24,598 nucleotides of DNA, taken from positions 1 through 24,598 of the forward strand of contig CAZRQA010000003.1 in the NCBI GenBank assembly GCA_964602335.1, written 5' to 3'. This document shows positions 3,080 to 19,806 of this stretch, piece after piece. The translations under genes were made by a program, and so were the position numbers. This stretch comes from an uncultured Bdellovibrionales bacterium. Lineage in GTDB: Bacteria > Patescibacteriota > Minisyncoccia > Moranbacterales > DUUL01. Each line of letters opens with the position of its first letter. The stretch's first letter is position 1. The notes below the pieces were generated by a model. The model did not search any database and was not told the origin of the DNA. It worked only from the letters and a program-made list of their open reading frames with translations.

Positions 3080-4696
3080 ATGAAAATCAGCCCCGTTAAA
3101 ATAATTAAAAAACTAGAAAACAACCCGGGAAGTTTTAATAAATGGGTTGTTTCTTTTGGAGCCATAATCACTATTCGATTATACATTGAGGGATTGATTT
3201 TAAAACTCTCTGTTAATGATTTTACTTACTTTATATTATTTTTTATTCATACCTTGCTTTTTTTTGGTTTGCTTTTTTTAATTTTTTTATGGATTTTAAA
3301 AAAAATCACCAAGGTTCCATACCGAAAAATTATAAATATTTTATTATGGGGTTATTGGTTTATTATTTTCCCGCCCATTATTGATAGGGTTATCTTTGGA
3401 GATAGATTTATTTGGAGTTATTACGTTTTTGACGGCTTGAGCGGGTTAATTCGGCGTTTTTTTACCTTTTTTGGCGACAACCCAGCCTTAGGGATTACTT
3501 ATGGGACAAGGATAATAATTGTTTTTGTAATTTTATTTCTCTGCCTTTATGTTTTTTTAAAGACCAGGAGTTTTTTAAAACTATTTTTAATTGCCATAAG
3601 CAGTTATTTTGTGTTTTTTATTTTTAGCTCCTTTCCCAGTTGGATGGCTCTGGGTATAGAATTTTTTTCCGGCCAAGCCCTTAAAGACGTAAATAATTTA
3701 GATGTAGCCAAGATATTTTTAACACCCTTTAGTTATTTCAATATAAAACTAGAATTGGAACTTTTTTTGATTTATCGGCTGACTTTATTTTATAATTTTT
3801 TATGCCTTCTTGCTTTTTTTGTTTTCTTGGCCGTTAATTATCAAAAAAAATTTATTGCTTTAATAAAAAACATCCGTTTTCCTCAGGCAGTGTTTAATTT
3901 TGGCCTGCTTTTTATGGGAATGGGAGTGGGATTTTATTATTTTCCTAAAAATGAATTTGATTTTTTTTCGGTTTTAATTGTTTTAAATTTATTAATTATG
4001 GTTTTTTCCAGTTGGTTTTTTTCTGTTTTTATCAACGACTTAACAGATCAAAAAGTTGATAAAGAGTCTAATCCCCAAAGACCATTAATAAAAAATATTT
4101 TTAAGCCCCAAGAGTATTCCAATTTTAGTAAGGTTTTTTTATTTTTTTCCTCTCTTACTTCCTTATTAATTGGTTTTCAAGTTTTTACATTAATTGCTGC
4201 TTATCATTTATTGACCTGGGTGTATTCTCACTACCCCTTTCGTCTTAAAAGATTTTACCCAATTTCCAGTATTTTATCCGCTTTTGCCTCTTTGATTTTC
4301 TTTATTATTGGCTTTTTGATTTTTTCAGAAAATCAGTCACTAGTAGGCTTTCCCTGGAAAATCTTCTTTTTTTTAATGGCAGCTTTCTCGCTTATGCTTC
4401 CCATAAAAGACTTTAAAGATATTAGGAGTGATAAAAAAGATGGGGTTTATACCTTGCCCGTGATTTTGGGAGCAAAAAACGCTAAAAATTTTTTAGCCGT
4501 AGCTTTATTTTTCTTATATTTATTCTCAGTGGTTTTATTAAAAGAGCCAAAACTTTTTTTACCTGCTTTGATTTTTGCTTCAATTAGTTTTTGGTTTTTA
4601 ATTAAAATGAAAATTAAGGACAAAAAAATAATTTGGTGGCTTTTATTTTTAATTTTTTTGTATGGTTTAGCTATAACAAAAACAGTCTTTACATAA
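3080..4696 (+). CDS. UbiA-family prenyltransferase with an extra N-terminal multi-TM domain
   Basis: The C-terminal half carries both Asp-rich UbiA motifs: INDLTDQKVDKESNPQRPL (from nt 4031) and KDFKDIRSDKKDGVYTLPVILG (from nt 4406). The N-terminal ~250 aa are hydrophobic and unassigned. Confidence 0.82.
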   Translation: MKISPVKIIKKLENNPGSFNKWVVSFGAIITIRLYIEGLILKLSVNDFTYFILFFIHTLLFFGLLFLIFLWILKKITKVPYRKIINILLWGYWFIIFPPIIDRVIFGDRFIWSYYVFDGLSGLIRRFFTFFGDNPALGITYGTRIIIVFVILFLCLYVFLKTRSFLKLFLIAISSYFVFFIFSSFPSWMALGIEFFSGQALKDVNNLDVAKIFLTPFSYFNIKLELELFLIYRLTLFYNFLCLLAFFVFLAVNYQKKFIALIKNIRFPQAVFNFGLLFMGMGVGFYYFPKNEFDFFSVLIVLNLLIMVFSSWFFSVFINDLTDQKVDKESNPQRPLIKNIFKPQEYSNFSKVFLFFSSLTSLLIGFQVFTLIAAYHLLTWVYSHYPFRLKRFYPISSILSAFASLIFFIIGFLIFSENQSLVGFPWKIFFFLMAAFSLMLPIKDFKDIRSDKKDGVYTLPVILGAKNAKNFLAVALFFLYLFSVVLLKEPKLFLPALIFASISFWFLIKMKIKDKKIIWWLLFLIFLYGLAITKTVFT

Positions 4697-4715
4697 TTTT
4701 TTAAAAAGGTATAAT
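4688..4715 (+). promoter_or_regulatory. Sigma70-type promoter candidate upstream of the T4SS-like operon
   Basis: TTTACA (4688-4693), 16-bp spacer, TATAAT (4710-4715), 40 bp before the ATG at 4756. Confidence 0.5.
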
Positions 4716-4755: not shown

Positions 4756-5865
4756 ATGGAAATAAAAAACCAAGAAAAAAGGAATAATTCAAAATTTTCA
4801 GTTTGGGTTTTATTTTTTTGCGTATTTTTTACCGGCTGGCTTTTTGTTTCCGGCGTAAGCTTTGGAGAGATGAACATTTTTGAAGATAAAGACCAGGATG
4901 GGCTTTCTGACCAAGAAGAAAGAGCTTATGGAACCGACCCGAATAATCCCGATACAGACGGTGACGGATATTCAGATGGAACAGAAGTAAAAAGCGGCTA
5001 TGACCCCCTAAAACCAGCGCCTGGAGATAAAATTAAAACAGAGAGCCAAGTCTTGGGAACAGAAGATGAGCAAGATTTTTTACTTAAACAATCAGAAAGC
5101 GAAAACTTTAATTATACGGAAGAATTTTTAAATAAATTAAAAAATGAAAAAGGAGAGGAACTTTCTGCTATAACCGATATTTTAAATAATCCTGAATCAC
5201 TAGAAGATGAAAGTGTTTTAGAAAATTTAGGAAACACCTCTTTAACCACAGAAGATTTAAATGAAATAATCAACGGCATTGCCCAACAAAAAAATGTAAC
5301 GGAAGAAATTGAAATCATCCCCAGAAATTCAATCAATATTTTAGAAAAACCTGAAGGGTCAGAAGAAGAGGTTAAAGAAAAAGAAAAGCAGCAAATTCAA
5401 GAGTATTTATCAGTTTTAAGTTATATTGCTTTTAGTAATGCCCCGCTAGAAACTCTAAGTGAAAACCAACTTAGCCAATCGGGCTTGCTTTTTATAAGCC
5501 AGCTCAGCACTTATTTAGAAGCGGGAAACAGCAAGGAGTTGGAGTTGCTTAGGAGTAAAGCTGAGAAGGCCTATCAAGAGCTAAACCAAGTGGACGTGCC
5601 GGAAGTTCTGGTGGACATTCATTTGTTGGGAATGTCTTTATTGAAGTATTCCCTGGAGAACATTGACGAAAAAGCGCTGATTGACAGCCGGGATCCGGTA
5701 GAGATGTTGATAACTTTAAACAAGTTTCAAGCCGTCTTGGCTCAAGGAGAAAATTTAAAAAAGGAAATCCAATCAATATTAGATGAATACGAGATAGAAT
5801 TTTTGAATTTTAATTCCAGTGGGGCGATTGAAAAAGAAGAAGATGAAGATACGCCAAGCAAATAA
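4756..5865 (+). CDS. Membrane-anchored or secreted acidic protein with bacterial thrombospondin-type-3-like Ca-binding repeats
   Basis: N-terminal hydrophobic segment, then DKDQDGLSDQEERAYGTDPNNPDTDGDGYSDGTEVKSGYDPL (two DxDxDG motifs), followed by a Glu-rich helical-looking domain. Confidence 0.75.
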   Translation: MEIKNQEKRNNSKFSVWVLFFCVFFTGWLFVSGVSFGEMNIFEDKDQDGLSDQEERAYGTDPNNPDTDGDGYSDGTEVKSGYDPLKPAPGDKIKTESQVLGTEDEQDFLLKQSESENFNYTEEFLNKLKNEKGEELSAITDILNNPESLEDESVLENLGNTSLTTEDLNEIINGIAQQKNVTEEIEIIPRNSINILEKPEGSEEEVKEKEKQQIQEYLSVLSYIAFSNAPLETLSENQLSQSGLLFISQLSTYLEAGNSKELELLRSKAEKAYQELNQVDVPEVLVDIHLLGMSLLKYSLENIDEKALIDSRDPVEMLITLNKFQAVLAQGENLKKEIQSILDEYEIEFLNFNSSGAIEKEEDEDTPSK

Positions 5866-5893
5866 TAATTTTTCTTAAAAACCGACTTAAAAA

Positions 5894-6832
5894 ATGCAAA
5901 ATAAAAAGATACAAAAATTTTTTTCTTTTATGTTGATTTTCGTAATCAGTTTGTCTTTTTTTGGTTTTTCTCCCAATAAAGCCAAGGCGGGCTATTGGGG
6001 AGAGCCGATGCAGGCGGCGGCTTTTCAAAATCTGTGGCAGGAAATGTATGACGCTTTTCGGGAGGCTTTGCGGGGCATGCTAAAAAAGCAAGCGGCTAAT
6101 TTAATTATTGACAGGGTGCGGGCACTGCTAACCGGACGGAGTTCGCGCAGCTTAATGATAGGCGATTACGAGGACTATATTTTTGGCAATGCTCGAAGGG
6201 AGGCCAAGTTGTTTTCCAATAATTTTTTCCGGTCCATAACAAGAAACGTTTCATCTTCTACTAACAGGATTCAAAGAAGCGTGCAAAAGACTATTGAAAA
6301 TGAAATAGAGATTCAAACTGAAAATTTGGGCCCTGATATTGATAATTACGTGCAGGGCGGAGCAGATAACTTATTTGATACTCGAAAAGGCGGTGGCACC
6401 TCGGCGGTGATGGCTACCGTGGCTAATCCCTACAACAACGCTTTTGGGTCATATCTAAGGACTTCTCAGATTGTAGAAGCTAAAATGGAAGCCTCCCAGC
6501 GCTCCGCAGAAGCCCGGGCGGTGGCCGGCCAGGGGTTTGACAGCAAGACAGATGCCGGCACTAACTTAATAGACTTGCCTGGCAGTATTACCAAGGAAAT
6601 AGTGGCTACGGCAGAAACTTTGCCGATGGCAATGGTAGCAGCCGCCACTTCAATGCCGGAAATAATAGGCACTATGGCAGCCGAGGTGGTTTCCAAGGCG
6701 CTGGAGTCTGGAATTGCTAAAATAACCCAGCCCGTGGACAATAAATTAACAGAAATAAATCGAAACGTGCGAGGAGGAGCGCGCAACATACAAAAGAAAA
6801 TAAACAACGGACTAAAGTTTTCTGATCATTAA
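5894..6832 (+). CDS. Secreted hypothetical protein (positional VirB5-like candidate)
   Basis: Sec signal ending AKA-G; Ala-rich, probably helical; 8 bp upstream of the VirB6-like gene. Function is inferred from position only. Confidence 0.6.
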   Translation: MQNKKIQKFFSFMLIFVISLSFFGFSPNKAKAGYWGEPMQAAAFQNLWQEMYDAFREALRGMLKKQAANLIIDRVRALLTGRSSRSLMIGDYEDYIFGNARREAKLFSNNFFRSITRNVSSSTNRIQRSVQKTIENEIEIQTENLGPDIDNYVQGGADNLFDTRKGGGTSAVMATVANPYNNAFGSYLRTSQIVEAKMEASQRSAEARAVAGQGFDSKTDAGTNLIDLPGSITKEIVATAETLPMAMVAAATSMPEIIGTMAAEVVSKALESGIAKITQPVDNKLTEINRNVRGGARNIQKKINNGLKFSDH

Positions 6833-6840
6833 TCAAAAAA

Positions 6841-9039
6841 TTGGAAAAAATAAAAGAAATAAAAAATAAAATATTTAAGAATTCTATACAAAAGAAAAAA
6901 CTTTTTTTAATTTTTTTGGTTTCTTCTTTATTAATGTTGTTTAATTCTAATTATGCTTATGCATTTGTTGATTGGGCTAATATGGGAATGAAGATAGTTA
7001 ACGCGACCCTTTATATGGTGTATCAACTCAGCGTGTTTATTTTTGTTGCGGGCAAATGGCTTTTAGACACCATGACCGATCCCGGGCTTTATTCCACTGT
7101 CTTTTTATCGCCTCATTCCATTGAGGCCATTAACACCGCTTGGACGCATGTACGAGATTTCTTTAATATGATTTTTATTTTAATAATTTTAATGATAGCG
7201 ATTTGCATTATTTTACGCGTACCAAAATACAGCGATAAGAAGTTTCTTTTTTATATAGTTCTGGCGGCGCTTTTAATAAATTTTTCCAAACCAATCGCTT
7301 TGGCAATTATTGACGCTTCGCAATTAACTATGAATTATTTTATCAATGCAGTTAATGGAGACACCTTCGCTTTTACTGACACCTTTGCTAAAAATATTAA
7401 TTTTGACAGAATTCTTAACGTGTCGGATGCTAAAGTGGGAATGGGCATAGCAGTGGTTATCGTGGCTTGCACCATTTTTTTATTATTACTGGGGTTTATG
7501 TTTTTTCTTTTGGCCATCACTCTTTTAATAAGGATGGTAGCCTTTTACGTTTTAATTATACTCTCCCCTTTTGCTATGTTTGGCTTGGCTCTAAGAGGCA
7601 CTGGTGCCGGCAATATGTCTAGCGATTGGTTTAAGAAGATGATAAGCTGGGCCTTTTTCGGTCCGGTGTTAGTTTTTTTTCTTTGGGTTGCTGTAATTTT
7701 GGTCAAGTCAATAACTGAAGCAACCGACAGCGCAAGTTTTCAGCAATATTTCGGTACCTCCTCGGCACTAAAAGTAGAGGGAGCAGACGGAAAAGCTAAT
7801 AATACCTTAAATCTTCTTTTGGGACTGATAATTCCTTACGCAGCCGGGATATATTTATTATATTACGGCTTTGACCTCTCCAGAAAAATGTCCTTGGGCG
7901 CGGCTAATGGAATTTTAAATTGGGGAGAGGGAAAAATGAAAGCATGGAGCAAAAAAATAACCGGAGGTATTAGAAGGGGGGCCACAGCTCCACCTAAAGC
8001 TCTCTGGAAAAGCCAGCTTCAACCTAGACTGAGGGGCAGAATGGAAGGATTAGGAGAAAGACGGAACTCATTAGGAGTTTTAAAAACCAAGGAAGCTAAA
8101 GAAAAAGATCGCAAGAAAAAGTTTGAGCGCTCAAAAGCTCTTGCCAAAGGAGAGGATGAGGGTTTTTATAAACAAAAAATCGAAGCTAAAGAAATAAACG
8201 AAAGAACAGGAGAACTAAAGAAGGAAAATATGACCAAAGAACAAATGGTAGAAAGGCTTGGAAAAACCAAAGATAAAAATGAAAAAGCTGCCCTAGCTAA
8301 ACTTATTGTCAAAGAAGATAAAATCGATCACGACAATTTTAGTGAAGTAATAGAAGCCGCTTCTTATAATCCTCTAATCAAGGAACAAGTGGAAGATTCA
8401 ACAAAAAAAGAACACGTTAACCTGTTAATGGAAAACGAAATAAAAGAGGAAGCAAAAAAGGCAGGACATACTAAGGTTATAAAGAAGGATGACGGAACTG
8501 AAAAAATAGAAGGAGACATAGAAGCCTTTAAAAAAGAAGACAATAAAAAATACAAGGAAAAAACAAAGCCGGTTTATAATAAATATTTAAAAGGTAAAGA
8601 TATGAATTATTATTTAAGACAAAAGGATGATTTTTTAGTTAACGAGGATATCCAAGATCATATAGCCGATAAATATGCCGGCGCCTTATTTAGTGAAAGG
8701 CAAATTCAAGACATGGAGAGACTTGTTGCCGAAAAACACAATAGTCCGCAACATTTTAAATTTGTAAATAATTTTCGTGAAAAGGTTAATGCTAAAAAAG
8801 CGTCAGGTAGTAACAAAAAAACATCAATCTCGCAACAAGCACAAGATCAAAAATCACAGCAAGCACATGATCAAGGAGAGGCTATGGAACATTTTATAAA
8901 TAGCCAAGAAAATCAAGAAGGTAGGCGAAATCAAGAAAATCAAGAAGGCGAACAAAGTCAAAACAATCAAAGCTCTTTTAATAGACAGCGCCCATATTAT
9001 AACGTAGATAATACCAAGGAAGAGAAAGGCGAAGAATAA
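6841..9039 (+). CDS. VirB6/TrbL-like polytopic membrane protein with long charged C-terminal tail
   Basis: TTG start; N-terminal ~350 aa with many TM segments including AWTHVRDFFN..ALLINFS..IIDASQ and LLIRMVAFYVLIILSPFA..WFKKMISWAFFGP (VirB6-type pattern); C-terminal ~380 aa Lys/Glu/Gln-rich; upstream of prgI/virB4. Confidence 0.75.
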   Translation: MEKIKEIKNKIFKNSIQKKKLFLIFLVSSLLMLFNSNYAYAFVDWANMGMKIVNATLYMVYQLSVFIFVAGKWLLDTMTDPGLYSTVFLSPHSIEAINTAWTHVRDFFNMIFILIILMIAICIILRVPKYSDKKFLFYIVLAALLINFSKPIALAIIDASQLTMNYFINAVNGDTFAFTDTFAKNINFDRILNVSDAKVGMGIAVVIVACTIFLLLLGFMFFLLAITLLIRMVAFYVLIILSPFAMFGLALRGTGAGNMSSDWFKKMISWAFFGPVLVFFLWVAVILVKSITEATDSASFQQYFGTSSALKVEGADGKANNTLNLLLGLIIPYAAGIYLLYYGFDLSRKMSLGAANGILNWGEGKMKAWSKKITGGIRRGATAPPKALWKSQLQPRLRGRMEGLGERRNSLGVLKTKEAKEKDRKKKFERSKALAKGEDEGFYKQKIEAKEINERTGELKKENMTKEQMVERLGKTKDKNEKAALAKLIVKEDKIDHDNFSEVIEAASYNPLIKEQVEDSTKKEHVNLLMENEIKEEAKKAGHTKVIKKDDGTEKIEGDIEAFKKEDNKKYKEKTKPVYNKYLKGKDMNYYLRQKDDFLVNEDIQDHIADKYAGALFSERQIQDMERLVAEKHNSPQHFKFVNNFREKVNAKKASGSNKKTSISQQAQDQKSQQAHDQGEAMEHFINSQENQEGRRNQENQEGEQSQNNQSSFNRQRPYYNVDNTKEEKGEE
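8830..8949 (+). repeat. Short in-frame tandem repeats in the VirB6-like tail
   Basis: Two imperfect 24-bp units at 8830-8877 (SQQAQDQK/SQQAHDQG) and the exact 17-mer CAAGAAAATCAAGAAGG at 8905-8921 and 8932-8948 (QENQEG twice, period 27). Confidence 0.85.
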
Positions 9040-9111
9040 AACCTCAACAAAAGAAATATAAGAAGGGGATAATACTAAAATAATAAATTTAAAAAAGTCT
9101 AATTTATCAAA

Positions 9112-10179
9112 ATGACACAGAAAAAGGAAGTAAAATTCAATAATCAAGCCAGCCCGGTTTTTGCCAGTGTGTTATGGAACCCGAAAGAAAGCCAGGAAAA
9201 ACAAATGAATGCTTGGTTTGAAACTTATTCAAGGTTGCCTTTAGTTGTCAGGAGGGGCTTAATCAATTATGATATAGAAAAAACAATAGAAAGTTTTTGC
9301 GCTAATTATAAATTTTCTCTGGAAAAAACTGGTGAGGTTTCCCGGATGATTCGGGAATACTTTACGGAAAACAAAAACAGGGAAGAGTTTGTACGGGACG
9401 CAGTGCGACGCACGAAAGAAAAATTATTAATCCCCCGAGAAAATATTAAGGAATTTATAAAAGAATTATTAGAAATAATCAACAATATTAAAATATTGGG
9501 GCAAGAATTCATAGATGAAGAATATGAAAAAATTTCTTTATTAGAGGCCATAAAAAAATACGAATCAGTGGCTCAACAACTGGTTTCCAGTGATCCGATA
9601 AAACTGGAAGATGAAAAAAAGGGAAAAGCTCCTACTATTAGCCATTGGCTAGAGGATTATTTGGAAAAAATGGGCAGTGATTATCATAATACAGTGGAAA
9701 TAGGCAAGTATCTTTTTGAATCAGAAAATGCCAAAAAATTAAATAAAAAAGAGAGGGACAATTTATCGTCTATAATCGAAGCTTTTAATGAAAAAAAGAA
9801 TGTTTTCATATTAAAAAACAAAAAAGAGAGGCCGCAGATTAATTTTGAATTAACTAATGAACTCAATGAAAGTTTTAGTAAAAATCAATATAAAAAAACA
9901 AAAGCTTTAAAAGAAGAAAGACCCATTAAGTTAAACAAGCAAACAAGCGATCAGCTAAAAATTAAAAAAGATTTTTCCTTGCCGCCGCAATTTAATAATG
10001 ATAAGATTTTTATTGAAAATAAAATGAAAGTGGATTCGGGAAGCAAAACTAATAATAAATCCAAAGAAGAAAGCAATCCTCAAGTTAATTTAAAAGATAA
10101 AAAATCCAGCCAGCCCGAAAAAAATGCCAGCTCAAACAGAAACGTTCTAGACTTAAGTGAATTTATAAATCATAATTAA
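9112..10179 (+). CDS. Soluble hypothetical protein of the T4SS-like cluster
   Basis: 355-aa ORF with no TM or signal peptide; two helical-looking domains and a low-complexity tail ending NVLDLS; 4 bp from the prgI-like gene. Confidence 0.7.
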   Translation: MTQKKEVKFNNQASPVFASVLWNPKESQEKQMNAWFETYSRLPLVVRRGLINYDIEKTIESFCANYKFSLEKTGEVSRMIREYFTENKNREEFVRDAVRRTKEKLLIPRENIKEFIKELLEIINNIKILGQEFIDEEYEKISLLEAIKKYESVAQQLVSSDPIKLEDEKKGKAPTISHWLEDYLEKMGSDYHNTVEIGKYLFESENAKKLNKKERDNLSSIIEAFNEKKNVFILKNKKERPQINFELTNELNESFSKNQYKKTKALKEERPIKLNKQTSDQLKIKKDFSLPPQFNNDKIFIENKMKVDSGSKTNNKSKEESNPQVNLKDKKSSQPEKNASSNRNVLDLSEFINHN

Positions 10180-10183
10180 AAAA

Positions 10184-10579
10184 ATGAAATTTAGAGTTCC
10201 CCAATACATAGAAATAGAAGACAAAATCGCCTTCTTACTAACTGCCAAACAATTAGGCTGGTTTGCTCTAGGGGGAGTAATTTTGTTTATTATTTGGAAT
10301 TTTGTGACCCAGGGATTTTTTATTTTTTGGGCAATTATTATAGGTTTGGCAAGCTGCGCTTTTGCTTTTTATAAGCCTTGCGGCATAACTCTGGCTTCCT
10401 TTATTAAGAACTCTTTTTTATATATGATTGGGCCTAAAAAATATGTATGGAAAGTGAACCCCTCCATAATGGATTCGGTCAAGAAAAAGCAAAAACCAGG
10501 CAAAAAAGAAGAGAAAGAAAAAGATATAAAAAAGCGTCCAAAAAATTTAAATGAAATTGTAGAGATTCTTGATTCATAA
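10184..10579 (+). CDS. prgI: PrgI-family (VirB3-like) membrane protein
   Basis: FRVPQYIEIEDKIAFLLTAKQ N-terminal motif, two TM segments, then YMIGPKKYVWK; upstream of virB4. Confidence 0.85.
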   Translation: MKFRVPQYIEIEDKIAFLLTAKQLGWFALGGVILFIIWNFVTQGFFIFWAIIIGLASCAFAFYKPCGITLASFIKNSFLYMIGPKKYVWKVNPSIMDSVKKKQKPGKKEEKEKDIKKRPKNLNEIVEILDS

Positions 10580-10603
10580 AAATTAAAATAATCATAAATA
10601 AGT

Positions 10604-11275
10604 ATGAAAAAAAAAGAAATTAAAAACAGATTAGCCTCTCTGCAAGATCAGCTGGATATTGTGGATATTAAAAAGGGAGCGGTAGCATTGCGAGACGGCT
10701 CCCTAAGAGGTGTTTTAGCTGTTTCTTCTATAAACTTTGAGTTGAAAGCCCAGGAGGAGCAAGAGGCTATTATTTATAATTATCAGAGGTTTCTCAACAC
10801 TCTTGATTTTTCTATTCAAATTTTAATTTCTTCCAAGAAATTTGATGTAGATCCCTATCTGGATATGCTGGAAAAAAGAAAAAGAAAAACACTGAATAAC
10901 ATGCTTAAAAAGCAAATAACCGACTACATTGATTTTATCGGCGAATTAACGGAGATAAGCAATATTATGTCTACTTATTTTTATATAATTGTTCCTTTTT
11001 ACCCCATTGAGCAAAAAGAACGGAGCATTTTTGAAAAAATTTTTTCGCTGGTCAATCCGAGAAAAGCTATTTATCAAGAAAGGGAGAATTTTGAAACTTG
11101 CCGCAGCCAGCTTTTTTTAAGAATGGAACAAGTGCGTGAGTCTTTAATAAACTTAGGGTTGGATATTACTCCCCTGGGAACAGAAGATTTAATTGAGCTT
11201 TTTTATAACTTTTTTAATCCTTCTGAATTTGAATATAATCAAATGGAGGGTATAGATAAATTGCAATTAGAATAA
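10604..11275 (+). CDS. TrsD/TraC-like T4SS accessory protein (resembles a stand-alone VirB4 N-terminal module)
   Basis: LDIVDIKKGAVALRDGSLRGVLAVSSINFELKAQEEQEAII..FLNTLDFSIQILI; lies between the PrgI-like and VirB4 genes, as trsD does in monoderm conjugation loci. Confidence 0.65.
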   Translation: MKKKEIKNRLASLQDQLDIVDIKKGAVALRDGSLRGVLAVSSINFELKAQEEQEAIIYNYQRFLNTLDFSIQILISSKKFDVDPYLDMLEKRKRKTLNNMLKKQITDYIDFIGELTEISNIMSTYFYIIVPFYPIEQKERSIFEKIFSLVNPRKAIYQERENFETCRSQLFLRMEQVRESLINLGLDITPLGTEDLIELFYNFFNPSEFEYNQMEGIDKLQLE

Positions 11276-11291
11276 TAATATTAACAATTTT

Positions 11292-13184
11292 ATGAATTTT
11301 TTGAACAAATTAGCTGCTTTATTCAATAAAAAAGAAAAAGCAAAAAAAGAAGCAAAAAAAGACATTATTGAAAAACAAGACAATAAAGAATCAGCCAAAG
11401 ACATATTAAAAGAAGAAAGGAATTACAAGGAGGGATTAATTAAGGTTTTAGATTTTATTTCTCCTTCAGCCTTGGGCATAAATGCTTCTCACATTCAAAT
11501 AGGAGAAGCTTATTGCCGAATTTATTTTATTTCCACTTATCCGCAAACCCTGTCTATTGGCTGGCTTTCGGGCGTGGTTAATATTGACATGCCGTTAGAT
11601 GTTTCTATTTTTCTTCACCCGGTAGATACCGGAAAAATCATCAAGACCTTAAGGAAAAAAGCCGCTCAGATTCAATCGGAGCTAAACATTGAATCAAGAA
11701 AGGGACTGGTGCGAGATCCTACCCTAGAGCTTGCTTTTGAAAATGTAGAAAATTTAAGGGATACGCTCCAGGAAGGAAGTGAGAGAGTTTTTAAAGTGGG
11801 AATTTATATTTCCATTTTTGCTAAAAGCCTTAAAAAACTTAATAAGCAAGGGGAATTATTAGAAACCATTTTAAATGCGAGGTTAATTTATACCAAGAAA
11901 GCCATTTTTCGCATGAAGGAAGGATTTTATTCCACTCTCCCTTTTTGTGAAGACAAGTTAATGTCCGGGGTAGACTTAAACACAGCCCCCTTGTCCACAT
12001 CTTTTCCTTTTATTTCCTCAGACGTCACTTCCAATAAGGGAATTTTATATGGCGTTAATAGACACAATAATTCCCTAATTCTTTTTGATAGATTTTCTAT
12101 GGAAAATGCCAATATGGTAATTTTTGCCAAGTCGGGAGCTGGTAAAAGTTATACTGTAAAATTAGAAGCCTTGCGCTCTATGATGCTGGGAACCAATATT
12201 GTTATTATTGATCCGGAGGATGAATACCGACACTTAGCGGAAGCAGCCGGGGGAAGCTTTATTAAAATATCCTTAACCTCTTCTAACCACATTAATCCTT
12301 TTGATTTATCCAAAGAGGAGGGAGAAGAAATGGAAAGCATTCTAAGGAGTAATATTGCTGAGTTGTTGGGACTTTTAAAATTAATGCTGGGAAATATCAC
12401 GCCAGAAGAAGAAACAATCCTAGAAAGAGCTATTAAAGAAACTTATGCAGTAAGAGATATAACCACAGACACTCCCATAGCTGAACTATCTAATAGAACA
12501 ATCCCTGTTTTGGATGATTTATATGAGGTTTTAAGAAATATGAAGGGAGCGGAGGATATAGCCATGAGGATAGAAAAATACACCAAAGGCATTTTTTCCG
12601 GATTTTTAAACAATCAATCTAATACCAGCTTAAACAACCAGATGATAGTTTTTAATATTAGAGACCTAGAAGAAGAACTGAGACCGATAGCGATGTATAT
12701 GATTTTACACTATATGTGGAAAGATATAAAAATAAACCGAAAGAAGAGAATAATTATCGTAGATGAAGCCTGGGTAATGATGCAAAATGAAGAAGCGGCT
12801 AAGTTTATGTTTTCTTTAGCTAAAAGAATTAGGAAATATTATGGAGGGTTGACCACAATTACTCAGGATATTTCCGATTTTATGAATTCAAGATATGGCA
12901 AGCCGATTGTTTCCAACTCTTCTTTACAGCTTTTAATGCGCCAATCCCAGTCTTGTATTGATGTTATTACTGATACTTTTTATTTAACAGACCGAGAAAA
13001 ATATTTATTATTGGAGAGCCGGGTGGGGGAGGGAATCTTTTTTGCCGGCAATAAACGCGCAGCCATTCAAGTAGTTTCTTCTTACAATGAAGATAGATTA
13101 GTTACTACCAACCCAGAACAATTATTAGAAATAGAAAGAGAAGAAAAAGAAAAAATGAAGGAAACAAAAGAAGAAGATAAATAA
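11292..13184 (+). CDS. virB4: VirB4/TraC/TraE-family T4SS ATPase
   Basis: Walker A FAKSGAGKSY, IIDPEDEY, INPFDL, Walker B IIIVDEAW, RIRKYYGGLTTITQDISDF, VGEGIFF. Confidence 0.93.
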   Translation: MNFLNKLAALFNKKEKAKKEAKKDIIEKQDNKESAKDILKEERNYKEGLIKVLDFISPSALGINASHIQIGEAYCRIYFISTYPQTLSIGWLSGVVNIDMPLDVSIFLHPVDTGKIIKTLRKKAAQIQSELNIESRKGLVRDPTLELAFENVENLRDTLQEGSERVFKVGIYISIFAKSLKKLNKQGELLETILNARLIYTKKAIFRMKEGFYSTLPFCEDKLMSGVDLNTAPLSTSFPFISSDVTSNKGILYGVNRHNNSLILFDRFSMENANMVIFAKSGAGKSYTVKLEALRSMMLGTNIVIIDPEDEYRHLAEAAGGSFIKISLTSSNHINPFDLSKEEGEEMESILRSNIAELLGLLKLMLGNITPEEETILERAIKETYAVRDITTDTPIAELSNRTIPVLDDLYEVLRNMKGAEDIAMRIEKYTKGIFSGFLNNQSNTSLNNQMIVFNIRDLEEELRPIAMYMILHYMWKDIKINRKKRIIIVDEAWVMMQNEEAAKFMFSLAKRIRKYYGGLTTITQDISDFMNSRYGKPIVSNSSLQLLMRQSQSCIDVITDTFYLTDREKYLLLESRVGEGIFFAGNKRAAIQVVSSYNEDRLVTTNPEQLLEIEREEKEKMKETKEEDK

Positions 13185-13193
13185 AAAAAATTC

Positions 13194-13703
13194 ATGGAAA
13201 AAGAGAGGGAAATAAAGAGAAATTTAGACAGAAACCGATTATCCCTAAGGCAACAAAAAAAAATGAGAGAAGAAAGTGTTTGGCCAAAAAACAGGATTGC
13301 TAGTTATGATGAAAAAAATGATGCTGAATTAAAAAACAGCGGTGTTGCTAGAAAAATAACTCCCGTCAGGGCGATTACTCTGGCCCTTAAAATGAGAAAA
13401 CAAGCCGTTCAAGGAGATACCAGTGTTTACATCTATGTATTTTTTTTGGCCGTTATGGCAGACTCAATTGATTTTATTCCCATTGCTGGGCCAATGGTTT
13501 CGGGTTTCATAAAGCCGTTTTTATTTGTTTTTCTATGGGGAAGAGGAGCTTGGAAAGTAAAAACTGTTCGTTTAATTTTAATAACAGCAGATTATTTGCC
13601 GGTTTCCAACAAGCTTCCCTGGTCTACTATTTGTGTAGCTTATTCTTATATAAATGAAAAAAAACAAGCGGAAATAAAAAGCAAAAGAATAGAATATTTT
13701 TAA
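13194..13703 (+). CDS. Hypothetical membrane protein
   Basis: Basic N-terminus, then hydrophobic segments with DSIDFIPIAGP and LPVSNKLPWST; 9 bp after virB4. Confidence 0.7.
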   Translation: MEKEREIKRNLDRNRLSLRQQKKMREESVWPKNRIASYDEKNDAELKNSGVARKITPVRAITLALKMRKQAVQGDTSVYIYVFFLAVMADSIDFIPIAGPMVSGFIKPFLFVFLWGRGAWKVKTVRLILITADYLPVSNKLPWSTICVAYSYINEKKQAEIKSKRIEYF

Positions 13704-13725
13704 ATCAATTAAAATAATAAGAGGC

Positions 13726-14406
13726 TTGAAAAAAAATAATAAAGAAAATTTAATATTTTTTATTACTATTGCGATAATTTTTTTAGGGCAATGGTATCTT
13801 GCTAAGAATAATAGCAGTACTTTTGATTTATTGAATTGGCTGCTGGCTTCAATTTTTATGTTGTTTCTTTTTCCAATTTTTATTATTAAACGAATTTACA
13901 AAAAAAAATTAAAGAATTATTACTTAAAATTAAATTTTTTAAAAGATAACCAAGTTAAAAGCATCGTTTTACTGGAAGTTTTGTTTGTAGTTGGATTATT
14001 ATATTTTTTTGTGGTAGAATTAGGCTGGGTAGAACACTTTAGGGCTTATATGTGGTTTTTTGGCAGCTGGAGTGTTATTTTATTTGTAGAACTTGTTATT
14101 TTACCCTTACTTATTTTTTCTGAAGAGTTTTTTTTTAGAGGATTTATTCTTAAAACACTATTAGACAGATATAAGATATTATGGGCCTTGCTCATCCAGG
14201 TTTTCATTGTGATAATCTATCAGGCAATTTTAAGTTCTTTTTTAGCCTGGCAGTTGTTGATTATTTTATTCATAGTTAATATTTTTTTAAGCTGGATAGT
14301 GGCGCAAACTAGGACAATTTGGATTTCTTTTTTGGTGATGCTTTTATTTAGATATCTCATTGACGGATACATTCTATACCAAATAAAATTTTTATTGGGA
14401 AATTAA
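13726..14406 (+). CDS. CPBP/Abi (CAAX protease-like) intramembrane protein with degenerate active site
   Basis: TTG start; multi-TM; EEFFFRGF matches the EExxxR motif, but no histidine occurs downstream of it. Confidence 0.75.
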   Translation: MKKNNKENLIFFITIAIIFLGQWYLAKNNSSTFDLLNWLLASIFMLFLFPIFIIKRIYKKKLKNYYLKLNFLKDNQVKSIVLLEVLFVVGLLYFFVVELGWVEHFRAYMWFFGSWSVILFVELVILPLLIFSEEFFFRGFILKTLLDRYKILWALLIQVFIVIIYQAILSSFLAWQLLIILFIVNIFLSWIVAQTRTIWISFLVMLLFRYLIDGYILYQIKFLLGN

Positions 14407-14421
14407 ATTTGAAAACAAAAA

Positions 14422-17391
14422 ATGCCTAACGGATTAAAAAACAAAACAATAAAAAACTTTTATTTCTTTTTGATTTTAGTGTTGTTTTTTTCAGAAAATG
14501 TTTTTGCTCAATTTGATCCAACTCCTGACGTTCCAACTCCCGACAGCGGAGGAGGAATTTTTGGAGGCGGGCCCAGTATAAGCGTGGCAGGGGTTTTAGA
14601 TCAGATAGAAAAGAGATACGGATATGACAAAAATGTTTGGAGAAGAGGGAAGGTAAAAGCTTTTTATCCCAAAGTCGAACTTTTTTTTGATAAAACCAAT
14701 CCCAAAGAGGGAGAAATGGTTACTGCCAGCGCTATCCCGGCTTATTTTAGAAATACCTCCGAAAACTTATATTTTACTTGGTATATCGTTCACAAGGATG
14801 ATGCGGAAGACGGGGTTATTGATATAGAAGAAGCCAAAAGGGAAGCCATGGGAAAAGTGGCGAGGGGCAATTTTAATCCGGTTCTATTTGGAACAAGATA
14901 CGATAATGGTGGAGACGACCCCGATCATGACGGTTTTGATGCTCCAATAGGAGGAAAAGACGGAGTTGGAGCCAAGGATTCCCATGGGTGCGGCTCTAAA
15001 ACAAAAAGAAGCAACCCTTGTTTTGAGGATTATTGTTATATAGATGAACCCCGCCAATTAGTTGGAGCTTCATGTATTAGCCGATGTTATGAACATAATT
15101 TTGGCTTGCAATTTAATGCTGATTCCGAGGTAGATAAAATAGAAGGGGGAGAAGAGATAGCCTCTGGGAAAGATAGGATCATAGAATGCAAACACGATTT
15201 TGCTAAAGCAAAAAAAGGAGAAAAAGCGACTTTTAGTTATGAGGATGGCACAACAAAAACATATGAGTGCGATAAAAATTATAGAGTAGGAGATTCAAAT
15301 AAATTTACTACTAATGAGGAATTTTGCTGGAGATTAGATCCTGAAAACCCCGATACTGATGGAGATGGAATTGAAGATGAGGCTGATTTAGCTGGTTTAG
15401 CTCAAAATAGCTTTAGATGGGAGTATCAGGAGGGGGACTTGGTCGGGGTAATAGTGGAAGGAACTGCCCACGTTCCAACAAATGAAGGAAAAACACAAAA
15501 GCAAGCAAATGAATTAACAAGGGCGAATGAAGATGGAAATGTTTCGTTGGGTTCGGCTAATGCTAGCGCTTCAGCTACTGGCGGATCCAATAATTCTGGC
15601 GGATCTGCTAATGCTAGCACTAGTGTAGATCTAGGTTTTGATGTAAGTGATACAGCTGAAGCGCTTGGCGGGTATGATGCTCCAGCTGATGAAGAAGATT
15701 TAGCTGCTGATACCAGTGCGTTAACGCCTTATTATAAAATAATGTGGGCTGGAATTGAAATTTGCAATGAACATAATGACGGCCTTTTTGTTGGGGATAA
15801 TTGCGATGACGAGCATGATTATGGCTATCACTTTTACGCCCTAAAGCCGGTAAATGAGGAAGCTGATTCACTTATTGAAAATGAAATAAATTATAAGCCT
15901 ATTAATCCCCAATTCGATAGCGTGGACGAAGAATATTCAGACACAATTGAGTTTAATTCAACCTTAATAAATGAAACTCTGAATACCAATTTTGTTTACT
16001 ATGAATGGGACATCTTTAGGTGTAAAGATGGTGATATTGAAAATTGTCCAGGTTTAGGAAAGGATCTAGACGAATACGTTAATTTAACCAAAAGATGTGA
16101 ACACGGAGACTTATTAGAAGAATGCACCAAGCAGTGCGTTAACCAGGATGGAAAAATTATTGGTTATAATAATTGTAATGAAAGCGAATTAGTAAAGGTT
16201 TTAGAATCAGACAGTCATGTTCAGGGAATGGGAGTTAATGAAATTAAATTCAAGCCCAAAAAACCCTTAATAGAAGAAGACAGGCAGTATTTCAATGTTT
16301 TTTTAAAGACAAAGCACTTTAAAGAAGAACAAAAATATTTTGTTTCCAGAAAATCAGTACCAGTGACTAAAAATAACCTAAAAATAAAATTATACAAAAC
16401 AAAAAAACTGGAAAACGGCAAGTATGGCTTTGATTCAGAAGAGGATGAAATATGCAAGGAAGGCCTGTATAAAACTATGTGCCCCGTTTTCCCTTACCAG
16501 GTTTTAGCTGCTAAAGCCGAATTTCAAGGTGAGCCGGAAGATGATGTAACTTACAATTGGAAATTGGGAGAAAATTTAATAAGCCCACCATTGGATTGCG
16601 AGGATTCATTTCAAGAAAAATATTGTGATTTAGATGAGGTTATTTATTTTCCAATTTTAGAAGAAAATAAGTCCATCAACACTATTGGAGTAGTAGCCAA
16701 GAGAGGGGATATAATAGAGGGAGACAATGGAGAAGATTTAATTTCCCAGAGAATATTTTCCATTAATCCTCCCGCGGCGGCAATTAAAACCCAAAACCCA
16801 GAGACCGCTTGGCAGTCTAAACTGTACGATGAGACGGAAGGAGTTAATTTTTTTGAAACTGAGCCTGGCAATAAAGTGGAATTTAAAGCTTCCATGATAC
16901 CTGATTATTTAGAAATAGGCGAGGATGTTTATTTGGACTGGTATTTAAATGGGACAAAAGTTACGGAAGATTTCATTAAAGAAATTCCAGAAATGGAGAT
17001 AGAATTCAAAGAAGATCAAAAGGTGATAAATTATAAAGTGTTAGGAAAAATTGGTAACAATAGCAGTTTAAGCATAAAAACAAGAAAATTATTTTCTTTT
17101 GATGAGCTTAGGCTGTTACAAAAGAATTGGGATGTTTTAGATGTGGACCCGCTTGAAAAAGAAAACTCGATTACTATTAAAAAAATTTATAATCCGGCCA
17201 ATGAAGAAGAAAATAATTTAGCCAATAACACAGAGTCATTAAAATTGTTTTTTGCCTCTACGGTTAAAAATGCTCCGGGATATTTGATTTTTACTTTAAG
17301 ATTGTCAGTAATGTTGATGATTATTTGGGGAATTATTCTTGGGGCAGATTACATAGTTTCACGGCCAATCAAAAGCGACTCTAAGAAATAA
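14422..17391 (+). CDS. Large secreted, C-terminally anchored Cys-rich surface protein (adhesin-like)
   Basis: Signal peptide ending VFA-Q; 20 Cys; DPENPDTDGDG Ca-binding motif; repeated Y-x-W strands (YFTWY, YYEWD, TYNWK, YLDWY) suggestive of Ig/PKD-like domains; C-terminal TM followed by a short basic tail. Confidence 0.75.
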   Translation: MPNGLKNKTIKNFYFFLILVLFFSENVFAQFDPTPDVPTPDSGGGIFGGGPSISVAGVLDQIEKRYGYDKNVWRRGKVKAFYPKVELFFDKTNPKEGEMVTASAIPAYFRNTSENLYFTWYIVHKDDAEDGVIDIEEAKREAMGKVARGNFNPVLFGTRYDNGGDDPDHDGFDAPIGGKDGVGAKDSHGCGSKTKRSNPCFEDYCYIDEPRQLVGASCISRCYEHNFGLQFNADSEVDKIEGGEEIASGKDRIIECKHDFAKAKKGEKATFSYEDGTTKTYECDKNYRVGDSNKFTTNEEFCWRLDPENPDTDGDGIEDEADLAGLAQNSFRWEYQEGDLVGVIVEGTAHVPTNEGKTQKQANELTRANEDGNVSLGSANASASATGGSNNSGGSANASTSVDLGFDVSDTAEALGGYDAPADEEDLAADTSALTPYYKIMWAGIEICNEHNDGLFVGDNCDDEHDYGYHFYALKPVNEEADSLIENEINYKPINPQFDSVDEEYSDTIEFNSTLINETLNTNFVYYEWDIFRCKDGDIENCPGLGKDLDEYVNLTKRCEHGDLLEECTKQCVNQDGKIIGYNNCNESELVKVLESDSHVQGMGVNEIKFKPKKPLIEEDRQYFNVFLKTKHFKEEQKYFVSRKSVPVTKNNLKIKLYKTKKLENGKYGFDSEEDEICKEGLYKTMCPVFPYQVLAAKAEFQGEPEDDVTYNWKLGENLISPPLDCEDSFQEKYCDLDEVIYFPILEENKSINTIGVVAKRGDIIEGDNGEDLISQRIFSINPPAAAIKTQNPETAWQSKLYDETEGVNFFETEPGNKVEFKASMIPDYLEIGEDVYLDWYLNGTKVTEDFIKEIPEMEIEFKEDQKVINYKVLGKIGNNSSLSIKTRKLFSFDELRLLQKNWDVLDVDPLEKENSITIKKIYNPANEEENNLANNTESLKLFFASTVKNAPGYLIFTLRLSVMLMIIWGIILGADYIVSRPIKSDSKK

Positions 17392-17399
17392 AAAACTGC

Positions 17400-18587
17400 A
17401 TGAAAATTTTATTTAATAAAAAAAACATCAAACTATTTTCTTTATTTCTGTCTTTTGCTTTCTTTATTATTGTTTTTCTTGTCTGCAATTTAAGCCTTGT
17501 TAAACAGAACGCAGGTTTTTCATTGACTTTTTCAAAAAATCAAGTACTGGCAGCCGATCAATCGAATAGTGGATCTTATGAAATGTTTGAAAAGATTCCC
17601 GGGCAAGATCCTGCCAAGAATTTGTTAGAATATCTGGATACTCTTTATAAATTTGGCATTGCCATTTCCGCTATTTTGGCTTTTGTAATGATTTCTATTG
17701 CTGCTTTTACTATCATGGTCAGCGGTGCTGGTAATGCTTCCAAGATTGTTGATGCCAAATCGATGATTGGAGACGCCGTGCTCGGCTTGGTTATAGCCTT
17801 AGCCGCTTATTTATTTTTGTATGTTATTAATCCAGATTTTGTTTCCGCTACCAAAGAGAAACAGAAAACAGTCGGTGAGATGACTCATGATGAAAGCGAC
17901 CAACCATCTAGTGTTTCGAATAAGGAAGGTTATTCCAAAGCCTGCCCCAAAGGCGAAGAAAGTGATAGTCCAATTGATTATGGAAAATCCAAAGAAGAAG
18001 AACAAAATTTTGGTGGTGATTGTAGCAATAAAAAAATGAACGAATCTTTTGAAAAATTTGGTGAATCATTAAACCAATCAGGCGTCCCCAGAATAGATGG
18101 TGCTTGCCTTTTAAAAACTATTGCCCACCTGGAAACCACTTGCGGCGCAAATGGCAAGGAAAAACGTCCCAAAGAACTAAAAGACGGGACAACGGTGTAT
18201 GTTTGCAGTTTAATGCAATTAAGAGAATCTACTGCCATAGAATTGGGCCATACTGACGGATGCGACGAAGAATTAGTAAAAGATGATGAATTGGCGATAA
18301 GATTAGCTACTGATTATATAAAAAAACATTTAAGCAGTGTTAGCAGCCTAGAGAGTTATAATAAAATTGCAGGCTTATTAGCGGGATACAATAGCGGCTA
18401 TGCCACTTCTGTGCCAGAAGGAAAGCCTAAGAGCGCCCTTTGTGATAGCAGTGATTGTCCGGGAGAGAAAGCCTTTGAGTGTTGCATAAATCCGGTCAGG
18501 CTGGATGAATCAATTAGTCATGCTTGGAACGGAGTAGGCCTTTATAAGCAATGCACTGGAGCTCACTGGACAGAAGAAGAGCAATAA
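17400..18587 (+). CDS. VirB2-like pilin fused to a C-terminal lytic transglycosylase (SLT/lysozyme-like) domain
   Basis: Residues ~60-148 form a pilin hairpin (IPG..LLEYLDTLYKFGIAISAILAFVMI..SGAGNASKIVDAKSMIGDAVLGLVIAL..YVINPDFV). C-terminal TIAHLET (Glu245), SLMQL, AIRLATDYI and AGYNSG follow the order of SLT motifs I-III. Confidence 0.75.
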   Translation: MKILFNKKNIKLFSLFLSFAFFIIVFLVCNLSLVKQNAGFSLTFSKNQVLAADQSNSGSYEMFEKIPGQDPAKNLLEYLDTLYKFGIAISAILAFVMISIAAFTIMVSGAGNASKIVDAKSMIGDAVLGLVIALAAYLFLYVINPDFVSATKEKQKTVGEMTHDESDQPSSVSNKEGYSKACPKGEESDSPIDYGKSKEEEQNFGGDCSNKKMNESFEKFGESLNQSGVPRIDGACLLKTIAHLETTCGANGKEKRPKELKDGTTVYVCSLMQLRESTAIELGHTDGCDEELVKDDELAIRLATDYIKKHLSSVSSLESYNKIAGLLAGYNSGYATSVPEGKPKSALCDSSDCPGEKAFECCINPVRLDESISHAWNGVGLYKQCTGAHWTEEEQ

Positions 18588-18654: not shown

Positions 18655-19806
18655 ATGATTAAAAAGATATTTTTAATATCTTCTATTTCATTTTTAATCT
18701 TGGGCTTGGTTTTTTTGTTTTTGAAGTTTTTTTTCAAGGGCGATTTTAGTTTTTTTAATAAAAATCAGCCAGAAAAGGTTAGTGTTTCAGAAAAAGAAAA
18801 AGAGAGTCCATCCCTAAGAGAAGAGGCCGTTGCCGAAAAAAATAAAGAAAAAATAAAGCAGGTAATCACTGGAAATTTAGTTTCTGCTACCATTAAATTT
18901 CCAGAAAACGATATTTATTATTTTCATAATAATAATTTTTTAAAATTTAATAGCAGTACAACATCCCCAATTTCTCTTGCCAGCCATCCTTTCAAAGAAA
19001 TTAATTACATAAACTGGTCTTTTCAAAAAGATAAAGCTTTAATAAGGGATGGCTACAAGTTTTATGTTGTTTTTTTAGAGGAAAATAAAATTTCACCTAT
19101 TGAAAAAACAATGGATATAGCTGTTTTTAATCATTATGGAGATAAACTAGTATTTAAGGACTACAACAAAGAAACCCAAAAAAGAAATATTAAGTTGTTG
19201 GATTTAACTACTAACAAAGAAGAGTTATTGACAAACATAAAAGAAAGGAAGATTTCTTTAAAAAGAAACCCCAATCAAAATGAATTTTTATCTTTTGCCT
19301 ATCCTAGCGCTTTTCAGAAAACGAATAGTTTTTTGTTTGATTTAGTGACTAAAGAAAAAAAACAAGTGCTTGAAAATAAACAAGGAGTTAATTTTTTATG
19401 GTCAACTAAAGGCGATAAACTGCTTTTTTCTTACACATTAGAGAATGATAAAAGTAAAATGGAATTAGCAATTATGAATAAAAACGGAGGAGAGGTGGGG
19501 AATTTAAATTTCCCTACGATGGTTGATAAATGCGTGTGGTCTAAGGATAATATTAATGTCTATTGTGCGGCACTAACAGACACAGAAGCGACTGCGGTTT
19601 TGCCAAATGATTGGCTGAAAAGGAGTTTTAAAAACAAAGACGTTTTTTGGAAGATTAACACCATTAGCGGTAAAAAAGAAAGAATTTTAGAGCTGAAAGA
19701 CATAAAAAAGAATTATGATGGATATAATTTTTTTGTCGACCAAGAAGAGGAAAATTTATTTTTTATTAACAAGCGAGACAAAAGCCTATATAAAATTATT
19801 TTGTAG
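18655..19806 (+). CDS. Membrane-anchored beta-propeller protein (TolB/WD40-like)
   Basis: Single N-terminal TM, then recurring blade-like motifs (WSFQKDKALI, FNHYGDKLVF, WSTKGDKLLF, WSKDNINVYC). Confidence 0.65.
   Translation: MIKKIFLISSISFLILGLVFLFLKFFFKGDFSFFNKNQPEKVSVSEKEKESPSLREEAVAEKNKEKIKQVITGNLVSATIKFPENDIYYFHNNNFLKFNSSTTSPISLASHPFKEINYINWSFQKDKALIRDGYKFYVVFLEENKISPIEKTMDIAVFNHYGDKLVFKDYNKETQKRNIKLLDLTTNKEELLTNIKERKISLKRNPNQNEFLSFAYPSAFQKTNSFLFDLVTKEKKQVLENKQGVNFLWSTKGDKLLFSYTLENDKSKMELAIMNKNGGEVGNLNFPTMVDKCVWSKDNINVYCAALTDTEATAVLPNDWLKRSFKNKDVFWKINTISGKKERILELKDIKKNYDGYNFFVDQEEENLFFINKRDKSLYKIIL

Follow-up and report, generated by a model that had tools for sequence, protein, structure and literature searches.

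Genes resembling those of type IV secretion systems (T4SS) that lie beside a chromosomal replication origin, with no mobility gene in their company, raise the question of whether they are the visible part of a conjugative element or form a machine that the cell keeps for a use of its own. This question is posed by contig CAZRQA010000003.1 of assembly GCA_964602335.1, from an uncultured bacterium of the order Moranbacterales (Paceibacteria, Patescibacteria). The window, i.e. the whole stretch of DNA that we analysed, is this one entire contig of 24,598 bp, in a genome of 0.91 Mb that is distributed over 119 contigs and rated 90.8% complete; its DNA occurs in sediment metagenomes, and no RNA run was found to contain the locus. 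Eleven of its genes (A to K, positions 4756-18587; Table 1) had been interpreted, in a sequence-only reading, as a domesticated T4SS-like operon. We consider it likely, with a probability of about 0.8, that the locus represents, for Moranbacterales, the T4SS that Patescibacteria inherit vertically on their chromosome and that derives from the conjugation machinery of monoderms (MPF-FATA), and that it serves exchange at host contact and not conjugation. Few explanations have been put forward for the way in which genome-reduced Patescibacteria live off other cells; the T4SS is a candidate among these, and that case has already been published; what is added here is a clean, fully syntenic Moranbacterales example with its parts list, and the understanding of the system is unchanged. 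New are a corrected boundary of the cluster, coupling-protein-like genes that are unlinked to it, a division of its parts into class-wide and order-specific ones, and a weakly supported pairing of a CPBP-family protein with a membrane anchor.

VirB4, the product of gene G, is encoded in all 41 genomes of the order that were considered (12 families, 28 genera), as a single copy with 55-68% identity, reaching 94% in a same-genus genome, and in 97 of the 101 genomes that were sampled from the class, almost always once and with 47-58% identity; a search for a second VirB4 in the genome of the window found none. On longer contigs, the order dnaN-dciA-ubiA-A-B-C-D-E-F-G-H-I-J-(K)-propeller is kept family-wide, the propeller being a twelfth gene described below, and other families of the order keep C-D-E-F-G-H-I-J-(K)-propeller. 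A separate TrsD-like open reading frame (ORF; gene F) is present in all 34 loci compared, 14 from the order and 20 from other orders of the Paceibacteria, and the PrgI-like gene E in 14/14 and 17/20 of these, respectively; the other-order loci contain in addition gene G (20/20), gene C (15/20), a pilin gene (12/20) and the propeller gene (12/20). In 10/10 genomes of the family in which both genes are on the same contig, dnaA is found about 10-20 kb upstream of virB4, on the same strand, whereas in 11 of the 20 other-order loci virB4 lies 2.3-8.9 kb before dnaA, again on the same strand. The cluster has kept its place near the origin but has switched sides, so that its orientation relative to replication differs, and it is a core, single-copy, origin-proximal set of the whole class.

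These data bear directly on the proposal that the locus is an integrated conjugative element, or the decaying remnant of one, whose relaxase, coupling protein and integrase would lie just beyond the contig. The VirB4 is indeed of the CD1110 conjugative type and, the window being a whole contig, the flanks beyond it are unseen; but the gene is single-copy throughout the order and nearly all of the class at 47-68% identity, and on the long contigs of relatives the cluster is flanked by dnaA-dnaN-dciA-ubiA and housekeeping genes, as was claimed for the window and is seen there too. In the genome, the relaxase family PF03432 gave only a sub-threshold match of 15.9 bits, and PF02486 (Rep_trans), PF01076 (Mob_Pre) and PF08751 (TrwC) gave none, MOB_C, MOB_M, MOB_H and MOB_B not having been searched. 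No PF00589 integrase (tyrosine recombinase) was found in the genome, no att-like repeats flank the cluster, where the direct repeats are AT-rich chance matches only, and all ORFs of the locus are intact. The sequence-only reading had named a linked relaxase and integrase, together with a patchy spread among relatives, as what would overturn domestication; this objection fails because VirB4 is present throughout the order and in nearly all of the class and because both the synteny and the dnaA neighbourhood are conserved. With a distribution that is not patchy and no linked relaxase or integrase found, we give almost no credence to a conjugative element and retain the domesticated system.

That the core of this system is not new had already been supposed, and rightly, as a relaxase-less, origin-proximal and repurposed T4SS is found in two published studies (PMC12102498, PMC10633639). 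Quinonero-Coronel 2025 described a Patescibacteria-wide T4SS with a distinct VirB4 clade derived from MPF-FATA, in which TrsD, PrgI/VirB3, VirB6 and VirB2-like pilins are encoded near virB4, VirB1 homologues are linked to virB4 in Paceibacteria, where the genes lie near dnaA/dnaN, relaxases are hardly ever present, and homologues of the type IV coupling protein (T4CP) are common and unlinked to virB4; the hypothesis proposed was that of a repurposed machine, possibly importing from hosts (PMC12102498). Wang 2023 reported, using transposon sequencing (Tn-seq), that the SEML1_0006-0019 cluster of Southlakia epibionticum, which has pilins and is without coupling and relaxase proteins, is essential for epibiotic growth, and suggested protein export as one option (PMC10633639). 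A 2025 review repeats the essentiality of the Southlakia T4SS and states that deletion of comEC in this organism abolishes competence and leaves viability intact (PMC12857230). Our locus shares with the Patescibacteria clade an MPF-FATA-type VirB4, TrsD, PrgI/VirB3 and a VirB2-like pilin, probably also a VirB6-like protein, a VirB1-like hydrolase accompanying virB4, the lack of a relaxase, T4CP homologues that are located elsewhere only, and a chromosomal and ubiquitous presence beside dnaA/dnaN. It differs in that it has one pilin, fused to an SLT domain, and not a pilin array, in its pair formed by a His-less CPBP and the immunoglobulin (Ig)-like protein J, its TSP3 proteins and its TolB-like propeller, and in that the operon of this family is downstream of dnaA-dnaN, not upstream of dnaA. 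The main text of the survey is silent on CPBP and TSP3 proteins, the propeller and Ig-like adhesins, and reports that no PrgB-like adhesin was detected (PMC12102498).

The earlier claim that the operon is accompanied by no mobility genes stood for relaxase, integrase and att repeats. For VirD4 it stood only in part: no coupling protein is encoded in the window, and the genome gives no match to PF02534 (VirD4), but two VirD4-like ATPases, each combining a TrwB_AAD_bind with a TraG-D_C domain, have their genes on other contigs, unlinked to the cluster (Table 1). The shorter of them, on contig C20, is one gene away from pilM, which is a type IV pilus context and not a conjugation context. Searches of the genome for VirB8 and for VirB10/TrbI gave neither, and five T2SSE ATPases considered as candidates for VirB11 are type IV pilus ATPases instead.

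Alternatively, the locus could be a ComB- or Ced-like DNA-uptake machine that uses the two unlinked ATPases and feeds ComEC, and so supplies the cell with nucleotides or genes. This alternative gains from the presence of these ATPases, from the position of the ComEC gene (20914-22395), 2.3 kb downstream of the cluster, from weak matches of VirB4 to the CedB/CedD models, and from import from hosts being the published hypothesis (PMC12102498). However, the adjacency of comEC is found only in the same-genus relative and in 0/33 other loci, one of the TrwB-like genes is the one beside pilM, and in Southlakia comEC is dispensable for viability and the T4SS is essential (PMC12857230). ComEC-coupled uptake becomes less likely because its neighbour gene is genus-specific and dispensable in Southlakia; we rejected comEC as a functional neighbour for its genus-specific adjacency, and consider the alternative as a whole to be quite unlikely compared with a general apparatus for exchange at host contact.

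The translocon core of this apparatus was examined gene by gene. Gene G matches the conju_CD1110 model NF045971 at 7e-110 (368 bits, for a cut-off of 325) and also the TraG P-loop family PF19044 (9e-29) and CagE_TrbE_VirB, PF03135 (2.6e-10). Its residues 46-588 align to positions 182-730 of the CD1110 model, and residues 23-94 of gene F, which matches NF041427 (TrsD) at 1.1e-8, below the curated cut-off, align to positions 12-85. Because F covers the start of the model (about 85 positions) and G covers positions 182-730, the two genes correspond to a VirB4 split in two. Gene C, by its topology and position, is probably an 'extended' channel subunit of the VirB6/PrgH/TrbL family, with faint sequence matches: alignment with PrgH of pCF10 by hhalign gave an E-value of 9e-4 and a probability of 23%, one orthologue matches TrbL (PF04610) at 1.2e-4, and a precomputed TrbL_3 tag is carried by the gene C product and three relatives. 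When the genome was searched directly with TrbL_3, no match was obtained, and a profile search of PDB sequences with the gene C alignment returned nothing significant. Of the core genes named in the sequence-only reading, those for VirB4, PrgI, a TrsD-like protein and a pilin were thus recovered, and the VirB6-like gene is weakly supported.

The extent of the cluster was also reconsidered. The eleven genes had been described as co-oriented with gaps of 4-72 bp, and the ORF map gives exactly those coordinates, with successive gaps of 28, 8, 72, 4, 24, 16, 9, 22, 15 and 8 bp. The spacing at the edges of the cluster is 59 bp 5' of gene A and 67 bp 3' of gene K, and all 22 gene-size ORFs of the window are on the + strand with short gaps. 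As all the genes of the contig are co-oriented and closely spaced, orientation and spacing cannot delimit the operon, and its limits were therefore taken from conserved gene order. By synteny, the proposed start at 4756 and the eleven genes are upheld, but not the end: the propeller gene follows J or the pilin gene in 8/14 loci of the order and in 12 of the 20 other-order loci and, because this placement is conserved, it belongs to the cluster, which ends at 19806 and not at 18587. The class-wide parts are the VirB6-like protein, PrgI, TrsD, VirB4, the pilin and the propeller, and the order-specific parts are the CPBP protein I and J.

All loci of the order that are long enough carry, after VirB4, gene H (2-4 predicted transmembrane (TM) segments), gene I (6-7 TM, about 220 aa, 0-2 His) and gene J, and within the order I is always directly 5' of J. 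Gene I was not detected in the 20 loci of other Paceibacteria orders and a relative of J (1269 aa) is present in only one of these; there, the place is taken by a small TM protein and an exported protein of 250-360 aa. A profile search with J over the 101 genomes of the class gave real matches essentially only within the order, and the J family, taken at E<=1e-30, has about 371 cluster representatives, none of which falls outside 800-1200 aa. The His-less CPBP and the 989-aa J are an order-specific pair.

Nine orthologues of gene I keep E134, F136, F137 and R138 of motif 1 unchanged; within its EExxxR, this constancy covers the second Glu and the Arg but not the first Glu, which varies (E/Q/K/Y/R) among orthologues. 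The catalytic His residues of FxxxH and HxxxN/D (motifs 2 and 3) are missing in 9/9 orthologues, which extends to the whole set what had been noted for the window alone. Gene I is of the fold family but, to judge from these motifs, probably inactive as a protease, and a role as a non-catalytic membrane partner is probable. There is a solved precedent in Staphylococcus aureus, where the CAAX-protease homologue SpdC is a non-catalytic scaffold of its single-pass partner SagB, a membrane-anchored hydrolase (bioRxiv 10.1101/2020.05.21.109470). Like gene I, SpdC is a polytopic CPBP/Rce1-like protein in which the protease residues are dispensable or missing, and it acts by binding the TM helix of its partner, as gene I may by analogy; there is no sequence relationship between them beyond the family, and the partner proposed here is instead the C-terminal anchor of J. 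When I was modelled in complex with J residues 905-989, the outcome was 'weak support', with a score of 0.56 against 0.01 for the best control. In the calibration, 51 of 78 solved complexes attained the mark, as did 2 of 108 mismatched pairs; only 5 of the 78 complexes scored 0.60 or lower, as did every one of the 4 mismatches, out of 180, that passed. The predicted interface joins J residues 939-976 to the first helices of I. Other candidates for the partner of gene I are K, the propeller and further anchored proteins.

Two calcium-motif surface proteins had been announced for the locus, and both are borne out. Gene A has its TSP3 Ca-binding motifs at residues 44 and 66 and a single N-terminal hydrophobic segment; orthologues of it have the same location family-wide, as they do in 5 of the 20 other-order loci. 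In J, one TSP3-type motif is found at residues 311-320. The AlphaFold2 (AF2) model of J, made with 76 sequences, has a predicted local distance difference test (pLDDT) score of 79.7 and suggests, after a signal peptide, a Cys-rich head (about 80-355) that contains the TSP3 motif, a low-confidence linker (358-431) that is probably disordered, at least four Ig- or fibronectin type III (FnIII)-like beta-sandwich domains (about 484-925), a conserved motif (A945, P952) and a C-terminal TM helix. By Foldseek and VIA-align, the predicted stalk resembles tandem Ig/FnIII/cadherin-type adhesion molecules, including the Ig-like domains of PrgB (8beg, E-value 8.5e-8). Profile searches of PDB sequences with the J and B alignments gave nothing significant, and an Atlas feature search with J gave weak leads only, to TSP3/PKD surface proteins.

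The pilin-muramidase proposed for gene K also holds as a predicted fusion, both of its domains being supported by matches of orthologues and an aligned Glu. The copy in the window is by itself sub-threshold (T4SS_pilin, E-value 0.42; SLT, 19.4 bits for a cut-off of 21.3), and its orthologues match T4SS_pilin (PF18895) in 5/7 cases (best 1.6e-8) and SLT in 4/7 (best 8.4e-21). The pilin module is invariant in the alignment, and the Glu of IAHLET is placed there opposite the E-S motif that the orthologues carry; by sequence, the C-terminal domain is an SLT/GH23 lytic transglycosylase domain with this Glu as its putative catalytic residue. The pilin-SLT architecture is found in 4 of 7 aligned copies, that of the window included, and the C-terminus varies: two relatives have a pilin only (138-142 aa), one has a pilin with a different Cys-rich domain, and two have no K. 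Other fusions of PF18895 with PF01464 exist, and pilins of other orders, where they are encoded, measure 128-469 aa. A PDB sequence search with the C-terminal domain of K gave only spurious uridylyltransferase matches, which were rejected.

From these parts, the following mechanism can be proposed. The Sec-exported A, B, J and K would assemble, with the propeller, into an extracellular contact structure, in which J would be a membrane-anchored Ig-like stalk that holds out a Ca-binding, disulfide-rich head towards the surface of the host. Protein I, which lacks the catalytic His residues, would not cut but would dock the TM anchor of a partner, most likely that of J, in the way that SpdC scaffolds SagB; the SLT domain of K would open peptidoglycan locally, VirB4 and TrsD would power pilin extraction and the passage of substrates through a VirB6/VirB3 channel, and the whole machine would serve contact-dependent exchange with the host cell. 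A function in host attachment and penetration would fit the Ig-like stalk of J, the pilin-SLT fusion and the essentiality seen in Southlakia. A more specific version, which we regard as tentative and rather doubtful, is that the Moranbacterales T4SS has gained a host-contact module in which a dead CPBP docks the C-terminal anchor of an Ig-like Ca-binding adhesin, that the sole pilin bears its own transglycosylase so that a filament subunit cuts the wall, and that the TolB-like propeller is an unlisted core part of the class-wide system. The parts list offers targets for biochemistry, namely the muralytic activity of the pilin fusion, binding between CPBP and anchor and the ligands of the head domain, and hints at what to seek by cryo-electron tomography (cryo-ET) at the contact with the host.

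As for the direction of transport, we lean slightly towards the uptake of host material. The system could otherwise send protein effectors or toxins into the host cell, dispensing with a coupling protein as Ptl and the Brucella VirB system do; this would agree with an operon that has no T4CP and encodes many proteins with Sec signals, and it is one of the options in Wang 2023 (PMC10633639); however, apart from the SLT domain, no effector candidate with a toxic or enzymatic domain is encoded in or beside the cluster, and nothing separates export from import. We consider such export unlikely, if less so than ComEC-coupled uptake.

Against host-contact exchange by a domesticated T4SS, several points have to be set. 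The negative result for relaxases is limited to four families in a genome that is 90.8% complete in 119 contigs, and the two unlinked TrwB/VirD4-like ATPases could couple DNA to the channel. The VirB6 homology of gene C is weak, and the Ig-like matches of J are generic. The I-J prediction is weak as well, and its controls were unrelated natural proteins that are probably not membrane helices, so that unspecific packing of helices between I and J is possible. Finally, K is absent from some relatives that keep I and J.

The locus can also be compared with the Prg/Pcf system of pCF10 from Enterococcus faecalis, the prototype of MPF-FATA. Both have PrgI, a CD1110-type VirB4 (PrgJ in pCF10), a polytopic protein (PrgH, and its probable counterpart C), a cell-wall hydrolase (putative here) and, in the operon, a large Ig-like surface protein (the adhesin PrgB, and the adhesin-like J). 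By contrast, pCF10 has a linked VirD4 (PcfC), a relaxase, MobC and LPXTG adhesins, and no pilin, whereas here VirB4 is split and J is TM-anchored, with only generic Ig-like folds in common with PrgB. Gene B was tried as a PrgL/PrgD-like protein, and no match to PrgL or PrgD of pCF10 was obtained.

Table 1. Coordinates of the T4SS-like cluster, of its origin-side neighbours and of two unlinked ATPase genes (positions are those of the window unless a contig is named).
Feature	Product or nature	Position	Strand	Basis or remark
dnaA and dnaN	dnaA 5'-truncated by contig end	2-2655	+	DnaA box in spacer
Candidate operon promoter	TTTACA-16-TATAAT, sigma-70-like	4688-4715	+	11/12; best of region; ubiA-gene A spacer
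Gene A	acidic protein of 369 aa, exported or anchored at its N-terminus	4756-5865	+	two TSP3 repeats, PF18884 4.8e-15
Gene B	312 aa, signal peptide, all-alpha	5894-6832	+	~30 hypothetical Moranbacteria relatives
Gene C	polytopic, ~8 TM in residues 1-340, ~390-aa charged tail	6841-9039	+	topology
Gene D	cytoplasmic, 355 aa, no TM	9112-10179	+	conserved ~230-aa N-domain, low-complexity tail, C-terminal motif
Gene E	PrgI/VirB3-like, two TM	10184-10579	+	PF12666 1.3e-10, 42.1 bits, cut-off 27
Gene F	TrsD-like, free-standing equivalent of VirB4 N-terminal domain	10604-11275	+	NF041427
Gene G	VirB4 ATPase, 630 aa, MPF-FATA/CD1110 type	11292-13184	+	profile matches; Walker A/B readable in translation
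Gene H	small membrane protein, 169 aa	13194-13703	+	position after VirB4
Gene I	seven-TM CPBP/Rce1-like protein	13726-14406	+	PF02517 2.5e-8
Gene J	surface protein, 989 aa	14422-17391	+	AF2, Foldseek, VIA
Gene K	VirB2-like pilin (~55-150) fused to SLT-like domain (~230-395)	17400-18587	+	alignment, orthologue matches
Twelfth gene	N-terminally anchored TolB/PD40-like beta-propeller, 383 aa	18655-19806	+	Atlas clusters 0.97, PD40
TrwB-like ATPase 1	601 aa, soluble, C-terminal treble-clef zinc finger (PF23477)	contig C20, L117:8617-10419	-	
TrwB-like ATPase 2	840 aa, N-terminally anchored	contig C85, L116:2-2521	-	TrwB_AAD_bind + TraG-D_C

The remaining genes of the cluster are less readily assigned. 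Gene B has no Pfam, NCBIfam or PDB match, and its AF2 model, made with 36 sequences, is poor (pLDDT 60.5) and gave no fold match; these results speak neither for nor against a VirB5- or VirB8-like role of B. The position of gene D is conserved between the VirB6-like and PrgI genes and, in the alignment, its C-terminus carries a conserved N-[VL]-[LV]-[DN]-L after the non-conserved low-complexity tail. The C-terminus of the PrgI-like gene E has a conserved hydrophobic-x-x-hydrophobic-L-D motif. The cytoplasmic tails of D and E could be docking peptides for the same partner, e.g. VirB4. Gene H has no family match in profile searches; in most of the relatives sampled, the gene after VirB4 encodes a protein of 107-240 aa for which 1-4 TM segments are predicted (2-4 in the order).

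Upstream, the cluster is preceded by dnaA, which the end of the contig truncates, by dnaN, and by genes for a DciA-like protein and for a UbiA-family protein of 538 aa, and downstream the 383-aa propeller gene is followed by genes for a radical-SAM enzyme, a DUF167 protein, ComEC and a Na/Ca exchanger. A single perfect DnaA box is found at 1434-1442, in the dnaA-dnaN spacer, and a start of the cluster about 3.3 kb from oriC is plausible on the basis of this site. The cumulative GC skew rises throughout 1-24598 which, with all genes on the + strand, is consistent with a leading-strand stretch immediately to the right of the origin. The G+C content is 0.39-0.42 at 5500-8000 and 14500-15500, inside genes B, C and J, compared with 0.27-0.31 in the flanks; given the conserved synteny, this rise probably reflects amino-acid composition (Gly/Ala/Asp-rich exported domains) and not a foreign origin. 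Promoter-like sites are overall at chance (58 for 60 expected), as is the promoter/terminator scan, and the candidate promoter listed in Table 1 is a lead only. The UbiA-family gene (3080-4696) is kept directly 5' of gene A across the family, and two other families have it next to the cluster but reversed; its place there may reflect a functional link with the envelope machine and not chance.

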